Of a stretch of 6,081 bases of DNA, positions 3,557 to 3,748 are shown piece after piece. Under the pieces are notes generated by a model. It was not told the origin of the DNA, made no database searches, and was given only the letters and a program-made list of their open reading frames with translations. The first letter of the stretch is position 1. The number at the start of each line of letters is the position of its first letter. This DNA comes from a virus. A program made the position numbers and the translations under genes. The DNA is taken from IMG/VR virus record IMGVR_UViG_3300020041_000056, positions 1-6,081 of that record, one strand, 5' to 3'.

Positions 3557-3748
3557 CTACATCTGGGTTAAATTGTTAGAGCGGACAATGTAATCGACAC
3601 GCACTGTATCGATGTGAACACCGCTACGCTGCACTCGTGCTTGAGCAGAACAAGATGAAAGAAAAAAAGCGGCCAAAGCGGCAACAATAGACGAGACGAG
3701 TGTCCAAAACGCTTTCGACTTATAAAAAGGTAGTTTAGTATCAGACAT
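3557..3748 (-). CDS. Predicted small lipoprotein (63-aa precursor, about 31-aa mature lipopeptide)
   Basis: I use the internal ATG at 3746..3748, which is residue 114 of the 176-aa track ORF. The product is MSDTKLPFYKSKAFWTLVSSIVAALAAFFLSSCSAQARVQRSGVHIDTVRVDYIVRSNNLTQM.
- Positively charged n-region (KSK).
- Roughly 18-aa hydrophobic core.
- Lipobox L-S-S-C.
- The TAG stop at 3557..3559 is 1 nt from the VP2 ATG (TAG-T-ATG).

The 113 residues upstream in this frame are Arg/Leu-rich and overlap ORF98, so they look like off-frame translation. Confidence 0.6.
   Translation of the reverse strand: MSDTKLPFYKSKAFWTLVSSIVAALAAFFLSSCSAQARVQRSGVHIDTVRVDYIVRSNNLTQM

Follow-up and report, generated by a model that had tools for sequence, protein, structure and literature searches.

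The window analysed here, a stretch of 6081 bases, is a complete microvirus genome in which all genes are carried by the - strand (Table 1). Its closest GenBank relatives are unclassified Microviridae from the faeces of pig, civet, musk-deer, rodent and lemur, with a nucleotide identity of ~75-80% that covers parts of the genome only. Between the 98-aa acidic ORF and VP2 lies the small ORF on which this work bears: it extends from an ATG at 3748-3746 to a TAG at 3559-3557 on the - strand and encodes a product of 63 aa, MSDTKLPFYKSKAFWTLVSSIVAALAAFFLSSCSAQARVQRSGVHIDTVRVDYIVRSNNLTQM. As for the region 1067-1303, a hydrophobic off-frame ORF was considered there as a gene and dropped, since it is free of stops in just 37 of 108 relatives; the true gene of this region is the 66-aa ORF.

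Table 1. Genes and features of the window, from VP1 to Rep
Feature	Positions	Strand	Remarks
VP1, major capsid protein	4191-5999	-	Pfam Phage_F
98-aa acidic ORF	3882-4178	-	
Conserved structured intergenic element	3749-3881	-	directly upstream of the lipoprotein ATG; ends in a T5 run
Small lipoprotein precursor gene (predicted)	3557-3748	-	63 codons + TAG stop
Putative signal peptide, codons 1-32	3653-3748	-	n-region MSDTKLPFYKSK, h-region AFWTLVSSIVAALAAFFLSS; direct sequence reading
Cys33 codon	3650-3652	-	predicted lipidation and cleavage site of the lipobox LSSC
Predicted mature lipopeptide C33-M63, 31 aa	3560-3652	-	type A: CSAQARVQRSGVHIDTVRVDYIVRSNNLTQM
TAG-T-ATG junction with VP2	3553-3559	-	VP2 ATG at 3555-3553
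VP2, DNA pilot protein	2287-3555	-	PHROG 'pilot protein'
Two ORFs, each ~108 aa	1877-2206 and 1551-1874	-	
24-aa basic micro-ORF	1514-1588	-	
66-aa ORF	1113-1313	-	
119-aa hydrophobic ORF	156-515		overprinted in Rep
Rep/VP4	43-1134	-	

The small ORF and its genomic surroundings

Direct reading of the 63-aa product reveals an n-region (residues 1-12) that bears K5, K10, K12 and D3, for a net charge of +2, followed by a hydrophobic core of 20 residues (A13-S32) without any charged residue and by the lipobox L30-S31-S32-C33. Within the hydrophobic segment, small residues recur at every fourth position (S19, A23, A27, S31). The predicted mature lipopeptide is net-basic and contains neither Pro nor any Cys beyond position +1. 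The basic n-region, the hydrophobic core and the LSSC lipobox that an earlier note had recognised in this ORF were thus all found again on re-reading, and its estimate of a mature lipopeptide of about 31 aa agrees with the 31 residues counted from C33 to M63. In terms of structure, AlphaFold2, run on a 22-sequence alignment, returns a single long helix that is confident for residues 11-30 alone, the mean pLDDT being 69.

Conservation places the start at the ATG of position 3748, where 75 of 75 type-A relatives (see below) also begin. Two longer gene calls, of 100 aa and 176 aa (the latter spanning 3557-4087), were dropped because their upstream extension translates the conserved structured non-coding element; the frame of this extension differs among genomes and is closed in many relatives by a stop 1-4 codons ahead of the ATG. 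At the other end of the gene, the TAG-T-ATG junction with VP2 described in the earlier note is present, and most of the 75 relatives likewise show TAR-T-ATG at this boundary; translation of the lipoprotein and of VP2 would be coupled.

The element located directly upstream of the ATG (~125 nt) is near-identical in 51 unique relatives and folds as a long branched hairpin followed by T5 (fold z = -2.1). Compensatory double-sided changes are observed at five pairs of the inner hairpin and at one pair of the outer stem, while the comparison with Rfam yielded no match. Its role may be to attenuate or terminate the transcription that arrives from VP1, or to provide a signal on single-stranded DNA. 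Scans for sigma-70 promoters and simple terminators gave results at or below shuffle expectation, with models that do not apply to Bacteroidetes.

Conservation and selection

Relatives were retrieved from IMG/VR via VP1 (80 genomes, 67-89% identity), a route that introduces no bias toward the small ORF, and they were scanned together with 3 GenBank relatives and the window itself, giving a set of 84 sequences. The ORF was found directly upstream of VP2 in 82 of them, the two others being a contig that ends at that spot (L039) and a truncated locus (L073); relatives initially missed by tblastn carry a diverged version, referred to as type B, at the same position. Over 75 unique CDSs, the gene displays a dN/dS of 0.069 and a pS of 0.62, synonymous sites being saturated. 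When the two halves are considered separately, dN/dS amounts to 0.05 for the signal peptide (pS 0.62) and to 0.09 for the mature part, and the former value indicates that the amino-acid sequence of the signal peptide itself is under selection. The two shifted frames of the gene give ratios >2.5 and contain stops in all genomes, and the opposite strand is closed in most of them. The conserved ORF at the same position and the purifying selection that the earlier note had proposed to look for in relatives are therefore both observed. Its description of the gene as inserted proved misleading: the gene, as type A or type B, is a fixed and very conserved component of the clade, and it also occurs in other microvirus lineages.

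At a larger scale, a word-indexed search returned 368 database homologues of the lipoprotein, and a profile search over 1.84 billion representatives returned 69 clusters at 50% identity. Within the window's clade, the lipoprotein module is 79-93% identical versus 35-92% for VP2, and the VP1 loops reach a pN of up to 0.5. As judged from these comparisons of sequences, the small ORF is a genuine selected gene, whose module is constrained much more strongly than the capsid or replication proteins.

One could argue that such an ORF arose by chance, carries a lipobox by chance and is no gene. A PROSITE-type lipobox rule is indeed satisfied at 4 distinct sites of the window, that is, the small ORF and three others, and in dinucleotide shuffles the same rule yields 0.5 matches per shuffle with any start codon and 0.15 with ATG only, meaning that the lipobox pattern of a single sequence is weak evidence alone. 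With a universal presence, a dN/dS of 0.07, 69 clusters at 50% identity and an invariant Cys on the other side, this explanation appears already refuted by the comparative data, and its probability is negligible.

Probable assignment as a signal peptidase II lipoprotein

The lipobox LSSC, with its Cys at position 33, conforms to the pattern [LVI][ASTVI][GAS]C with a Cys at positions 15-35, and the succession of a charged n-region and an h-region, expected of signal peptidase II (SPII) substrates, is found in the product as well as across the lipoprotein family. An alignment of the N-terminal modules of 31 diverse homologues (identity down to 27%) leaves the Cys as the sole invariant column, and the position -1 to it is occupied by S, G or A throughout, both in these 31 homologues and in the wider family. 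More generally, a W...C architecture is present in 197 of 204 family proteins, with a lipobox of the form L/T-x-S/G/A-C, and the examples LSSC, LASC and TTSC are typical of Bacteroides lipoproteins. A motif resembling a signal peptidase I (SPase I) site, AQA|R, follows the Cys in type A and is not retained in diverse members, examples being TGFFK, QYSGT and TARHY. Neither the lipoprotein nor a type-B homologue was assigned to a family in Pfam (E <= 0.01), PHROG or NCBIfam. With the 31 members compared to Pfam at E <= 10, scattered weak matches below threshold were obtained, several of which are lipoprotein signal regions (LptM_cons, LPAM_1).

A caveat on the lipobox is that the hydrophobic core, at 20 residues, is long and that Cys33 is close to the upper positional limit, two features with which a signal anchor, or a cleavage by SPase I at AQA|R, would still be compatible. 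On balance, the lipoprotein reading of the earlier note provides the best fit, given the invariant Cys, the S, G or A at position -1 and the lipobox kept in 197 of 204 proteins, and the product of the small ORF is very probably a real SPII lipoprotein.

Regarding its final location, 192 of these 197 proteins display no D or E at positions +2 to +6. The surface-export signal of Bacteroidetes needs acidic residues at +2 to +6 (PMC5080379); devoid of them, and hence of this signal, the lipopeptide is predicted to face the periplasm.

Distribution, host and mature-domain types

Two types of mature domain are found behind a common signal peptide, type A (CSAQARVQRSGVHIDTVRVDYIIRSNN...) and type B (CTARHYVVQSASSVKSGDTTRTTITYEQIGNFKRP), together with A/B hybrids in the relatives L036, L057 and L060. 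The part best conserved between the two types belongs to the signal peptide and reads SK(K/A)FWTL...AAL.AFF. Among 185,579 species genomes, a single match was found, namely a microvirus prophage in Alistipes montrealensis (Bacteroidales), whose module is 76% identical to that of the window, with VP1 at 27% and Rep at 28%. In the lineage of this prophage and in two others, the lipoprotein gene is located upstream of Rep, not of VP2. Across five lineages, a 50-residue core shows 52-82% amino-acid identity with a pS of 0.6-0.9, and the GVHIDTVRVDYIIRS core is retained in lineages whose VP1 identity is 22-30%. Such a core identity despite saturated synonymous sites reflects long-term purifying selection and not a recent transfer. 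The lipoprotein is a self-contained module of ~60 aa carried by microviruses infecting gut Bacteroidales.

No description of a microvirus lipoprotein gene was found in the microvirus literature searched; in one GenBank TPA record, a homologue is named 'lipoprotein [Microviridae sp.]'. Phage lipoproteins are of a known kind, and the microvirus one would represent a sequence-unrelated variant in ssDNA phages, without a spanin partner or an endolysin.

Long forms and a J-like micro-gene

In several lineages, the module opens a longer ORF of ~190-215 aa. Its middle part is overprinted on a +2-frame ORF of 113-137 aa, and a hydrophobic segment of 13-15 residues containing Pro is found near its C-terminus, followed by a basic tail (...RRGGRRG...IPLGGSHL). 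Upon resampling of the synonymous codons in the +2 gene that it overlaps, frame 0 stays open in 23-69% of cases; by itself, the openness of the long form is therefore not significant. Past the end of the +2 ORF, the amino acids of the tail are kept through synonymous changes, which shows that the tail is translated in the frame of the long form. Besides, the tail is homologous to the free-standing 24-aa ORF of the window, MKARRRKKGKGTKVVTRPLGGRVL. This ORF, retained in 115 of 132 loci, resembles protein J of phiX174. A lipobox combined with a C-terminal membrane segment is the defining topology of unimolecular spanins (PMC6139136), and the conversion of an o-spanin-like into a u-spanin-like protein by stop-codon loss was proposed, not documented, by Kongari et al.

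Other lysis candidates and wall hydrolases

How microviruses other than phiX174 lyse their hosts is a recognised gap, no lysis gene being known (PMC3394797, PMC7062461). Apart from the N-terminal hydrophobic segment of VP2, which is a separate case, just two small proteins that are conserved and membrane-targeted were found in the window, the lipoprotein being one of them. The other one is encoded by the 119-aa ORF overprinted in Rep, in which 2-3 hydrophobic segments were recognised by eye, together with a basic tail. All of the 99 relatives compared keep its ATG, 97% of them have no stop in it, and the synonymous divergence of Rep drops from ~0.7 to 0.15-0.36 exactly over the overlap. This overprinted membrane ORF may be an E-like lysis gene, and as a rival candidate it weakens the statement of the earlier note that the genome has no recognisable lysis gene. 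If it lyses the cell, the lipoprotein would serve at the outer membrane as an accessory factor, or in an entirely different capacity. To that extent ORF 156-515, which may itself be the lysis gene and leave the lipoprotein with a different job, counts against a lysis role for the latter.

With regard to wall hydrolases, Pfam revealed no peptidoglycan hydrolase in the window, and tblastn with the M15A peptidase of phiHBP1 revealed no such peptidase in 129 lipoprotein-bearing loci. Conversely, phiHBP1, which its authors present as the first isolated Bacteroidota-infecting microvirus and which forms turbid plaques, possesses the M15A peptidase and lacks the lipoprotein. Peptidase and lipoprotein were never seen together among the matches listed (60 of 331 peptidase records), a comparison that is underpowered, ~0.7 overlaps being expected by chance.

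Proposed role and alternatives

By analogy with known systems, the lipoprotein is proposed to be a periplasm-facing envelope factor involved in lysis or egress, a tentative assignment to which we give close to, though short of, an even chance. According to this proposal, the 32-residue signal peptide would take the lipoprotein through Sec, Lgt and signal peptidase II would perform lipidation and cleavage at Cys33, and a 31-residue lipopeptide would be left tethered to a membrane and facing the periplasm. Its production would be linked to that of VP2 via TAG-T-ATG, downstream of a hairpin and T-run that perhaps throttles read-through from VP1. Late in infection, the lipopeptide would act on a conserved component of the host envelope and thereby lead to lysis or virion release, either alone, like the small bacteriocin-release and colicin-lysis lipoproteins, or paired with the hydrophobic ORF in Rep, as the spanin-like outer-membrane partner.

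Lysis or egress is favoured because the way in which the module is conserved suggests a host target independent of variation in the capsid, because the signal peptide is under sequence selection, as in bacteriocin release proteins, because a hairpin with a T-run precedes the gene, in a manner reminiscent of colicin lysis genes, and because non-phiX microviruses are without a known lysis gene. In bacteriocin release proteins, the signal peptide is stable and functional and adds to killing, and in colicin operons a terminator is located ahead of the lysis gene. The failure to find a wall hydrolase in the window (Pfam) or in the 129 loci (tblastn), the homologue in a Bacteroidales prophage and the u-spanin-like topology of the long forms are also counted in favour of this role. 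Nevertheless, fast evolution characterises the single-gene lysis proteins known from small phages, in contrast to the unusual conservation of the lipoprotein, and we know of no case in which quasi-lysis of the bacteriocin-release type frees 25-30 nm particles through the cell wall. In a more specific form, lysis would be free of any hydrolase and based on the lipoprotein as one gene or as one of two, the second being the Rep-overprinted ORF, while the 63-aa and ~200-aa forms would represent an o-spanin-like protein turned into a u-spanin-like one by stop loss; this version seems improbable.

The main rival to lysis or egress is superinfection exclusion or progeny protection in the manner of Llp (T5) and Cor (phi80, N15), with a receptor inactivated from the periplasmic face of the outer membrane; both this role and its expected consequence, namely that infected or carrier cells, debris and vesicles would cease adsorbing virions, are regarded as rather unlikely, though worth keeping in view. 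Like Llp and Cor (phi80, N15, HK022), the microvirus protein is a small phage lipoprotein that is predicted to face the periplasm and is encoded beside virion genes. A homologue sits in a prophage, gokushovirus carriage confers superinfection immunity by a mechanism that is not known (PMC7062461), the plaques of phiHBP1 are turbid, and the mature types A and B are swapped among close VP1 relatives, as receptor switching might produce. However, the microvirus lipoprotein is about half the size of Llp and Cor and shows no homology to them, Pfam, PHROG and NCBIfam giving no match, exclusion-lipoprotein families included. Neither linkage to nor co-variation with a receptor-binding protein was found: the gene lies beside Rep in other lineages, phages with capsid proteins of only 22-30% identity possess one and the same type-A mature peptide, and the lipoprotein stays 79-93% identical while the surface loops of VP1 (pN up to 0.5) and VP2 diversify, with no co-variation with these likely receptor-binding parts or with the capsid and pilot proteins as a whole. 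In contrast to the sporadic Llp and Cor, the gene is universal and highly conserved, and the sequence-specific selection acting on its signal peptide is not required for exclusion. An exported lipoprotein with another role, either in envelope remodelling for a carrier or persistent state or in the traffic of pilot protein and DNA at the membrane, is considered unlikely. Its coupling to VP2 in the window's clade, the reading frame shared elsewhere with a J-like basic tail beside Rep, and an extreme conservation that is atypical of lysis or exclusion genes would suit such a role, but the genomic partner varies (VP2 here, Rep elsewhere), a periplasmic lipopeptide would be unable to contact cytoplasmic assembly, and no homology lends support to it.

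A further alternative departs from the lipoprotein assignment itself: the activity would reside in the N-terminal hydrophobic segment, which would remain as a permanent anchor or be freed by signal peptidase I after AQA, and would operate like a pinholin or like the transmembrane domain of phiX174 E, which blocks a membrane step of wall-precursor synthesis. Within the protein, conservation is highest in the 20-residue hydrophobic segment (dN/dS 0.05), which carries small residues at every fourth position (S19, A23, A27, S31); AlphaFold gives a confident helix for residues 11-30, and type A possesses an AxA motif after the Cys. Still, neither a plain transmembrane helix nor an SPase-I site needs a Cys that is the sole invariant residue and that is always preceded by S, G or A; the diverse members (for example TGFFK, QYSGT, TARHY) do not keep the AxA motif, and the mature part is strongly constrained too (dN/dS 0.09). 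Only a slim chance is given to this non-lipidated effector, in either of its forms.

Encoding one of the two conserved membrane-targeted products found here, more conserved than the capsid protein and common to otherwise dissimilar lineages, the lipoprotein gene points to a conserved target in the Bacteroidales envelope. Beyond phiX174, two questions concern microviruses, namely how the host is lysed and how carriage confers superinfection immunity (PMC3394797, PMC7062461), and the lipoprotein gene is, from its sequence features, a good candidate for how gut microviruses break out of, or shield, their Bacteroidales hosts. Microviruses of this kind are among the commonest phages of animal and human guts. 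If the target exists, a 31-residue lipopeptide would be easy to synthesise and could expose a weak point in the envelope of a dominant gut phylum.

Comparison with known lysis systems

The likeness to bacteriocin release proteins and spanins concerns at most a working principle, with no membership in terms of sequence. The colicin lysis or bacteriocin release proteins (PF02402) are, like the predicted product of the small ORF, tiny SPII lipoproteins, with a mature part of ~27-35 aa, a range that includes the 31 aa found here. In both cases, the coding replicon is small, the gene follows that of the main structural protein or toxin and is preceded by a hairpin and T-run, and the signal peptide is conserved; the microvirus module likewise is more conserved than its neighbours. 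They act through quasi-lysis, by activating the outer-membrane phospholipase A. On the other hand, there is no sequence similarity between the two groups, none of the 31 family members matching PF02402 (Lysis_col) at E <= 10, and their hosts are Enterobacteria, as opposed to Bacteroidales here. Moreover, colicin lysis proteins release proteins, whereas the microvirus lipoprotein would need to free virions of 25-30 nm.

The o-spanins, such as Rz1 of lambda, are also phage-encoded lipoproteins of the outer-membrane type with a short periplasmic part. However, they possess a proline-rich periplasmic domain and a Cys for disulfide linkage (PMC6139136), both of which are lacking in the mature lipopeptide, and no i-spanin partner or holin-endolysin cassette was found around the gene, whose neighbours are the 98-aa acidic ORF and VP2. 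The u-spanins, such as gp11 of T1, are defined by a lipobox together with a C-terminal membrane segment (PMC6139136), a topology that the long-form relatives (~200 aa), with their hydrophobic segment and basic tail, may approach. The u-spanins end in a C-terminal transmembrane domain, whereas the 63-aa form of the window has no C-terminal hydrophobic segment, and that of the long forms is short (13-15 residues) and followed by the basic tail.

Finally, the lipoprotein resembles protein E of phiX174 in being a small membrane-targeted microvirus protein whose N-terminal hydrophobic segment is the best conserved part. In contrast, E does not belong to the lipoproteins and carries no signal that could be cleaved, and the two share no sequence similarity. 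E is an overprinted gene, whereas the lipoprotein gene of the window is free-standing; the D/E-J layout of phiX174 is echoed in the long-form lineages, where the C-terminal part is overprinted and then followed by a J-like basic peptide.

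Overprinted and small ORFs

The synonymous divergence (pS) of the replication protein gene Rep falls from about 0.7 to 0.15-0.36, and this drop coincides exactly with the overlap by a hydrophobic ORF encoded in another frame (see table). Besides, the ATG of this ORF is present in 99 of 99 relatives and its frame is free of stops in 97% of them, while Pfam and PHROG searches with its product returned no match. The ORF probably encodes a real membrane protein and is a competing lysis or holin-like candidate.

The status as a gene is ambiguous for the hydrophobic alternative-frame ORF of the major capsid gene VP1: it is without stops in 87% of relatives, and pS across it is only mildly lowered (0.52-0.63 versus about 0.7). 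For the 66-aa ORF at the Rep start, 108 of 111 relatives have a frame without stops, with an identity of about 79%.

Features of the window and of related loci (L-numbers)
Feature	Locus	Position	Strand	Remarks
Hydrophobic ORF, 119 aa (MEKLHLYLASSSIAVIRENSYLLALVIFLAICLVLLLVF...)	window	156-515	-	within Rep (43-1134), different frame
Conserved ORF, 66 aa (MDYFDFRPRFSPVVNS...)	window	1113-1313	-	22-nt overlap with Rep start
Basic micro-ORF, 24 aa (MKARRRKKGKGTKVVTRPLGGRVL)	window	1514-1588	-	overlaps end of ORF 1551-1874
Intergenic element, ~125 nt	window	3749-3881	-	near-identity across all relatives
Hydrophobic alternative-frame ORF, 73 aa	window	5744-5965	-	within 5' region of VP1
Long-form lipoprotein ORF	L084	4097-4672		
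Long-form lipoprotein ORF	L086	4688-5320		
Long-form lipoprotein ORF	L087	6977-7585		
Long-form lipoprotein ORFs	L116, L120, L121, L123			
GC-rich insert	L005, L009, L014, L016, L021-L023, L025, L040, L044, L048, L054, L062			

Long-form lipoproteins and the J-like micro-ORF

In other microvirus lineages, the lipoprotein module opens long-form ORFs of 191-210 aa (seven loci, see table), which have Rep directly downstream and are overprinted on a +2-frame ORF of 113-137 aa. They end with a short hydrophobic segment followed by a basic, J-like tail, a topology similar to that of unimolecular spanins. This tail is a homologue of the basic micro-ORF of the window, which persists in 115 of 132 loci as a separate ORF with its own ATG. 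This micro-ORF looks like an analogue of the phiX174 DNA-packaging protein J. The long-form layout echoes the D/E-J arrangement of phiX174.

Signs of recombination in the lipoprotein and pilot genes

The lipoproteins of L036, L057, and L060 are hybrids in which a type-A mature peptide, the version found in the window, follows a MNIKALLKSKKFWTLIAAVV-type N-terminal region that elsewhere accompanies type-B mature domains (P0130), which indicates that recombination has occurred between the signal peptide and the mature domain. In the adjacent DNA pilot gene VP2 (2287-3555), identity between the window and L001-L083 ranges from 35 to 92%, and conservation is often confined to the N-terminal part. 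Since this gene is strongly mosaic although its flanking genes are similar, frequent internal recombination is suggested.

Elements upstream of the lipoprotein gene

The intergenic element folds as a branched hairpin, in which paired positions show compensatory changes, and has a T5 at its end; an Rfam search with it gave no match. An N-terminal extension of the lipoprotein proposed by gene callers was rejected as a spurious translation of this element, which also accounts for the "100-aa" lipoprotein homologues found in the database.

In some relatives, a GC-rich extra insert of about 100 nt (CCATTGTGGCGAGGTGACGCATTTCGCGGTTCGGAGAACCGCCCCGAACGAAGTGAGGGTGCGGCACCGTAGCTTCCC) separates the hairpin element from the lipoprotein ATG. 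The L005 copy had no match in an Rfam search. This insert, present in two copies in L009, could be a mobile or structured element of small size.
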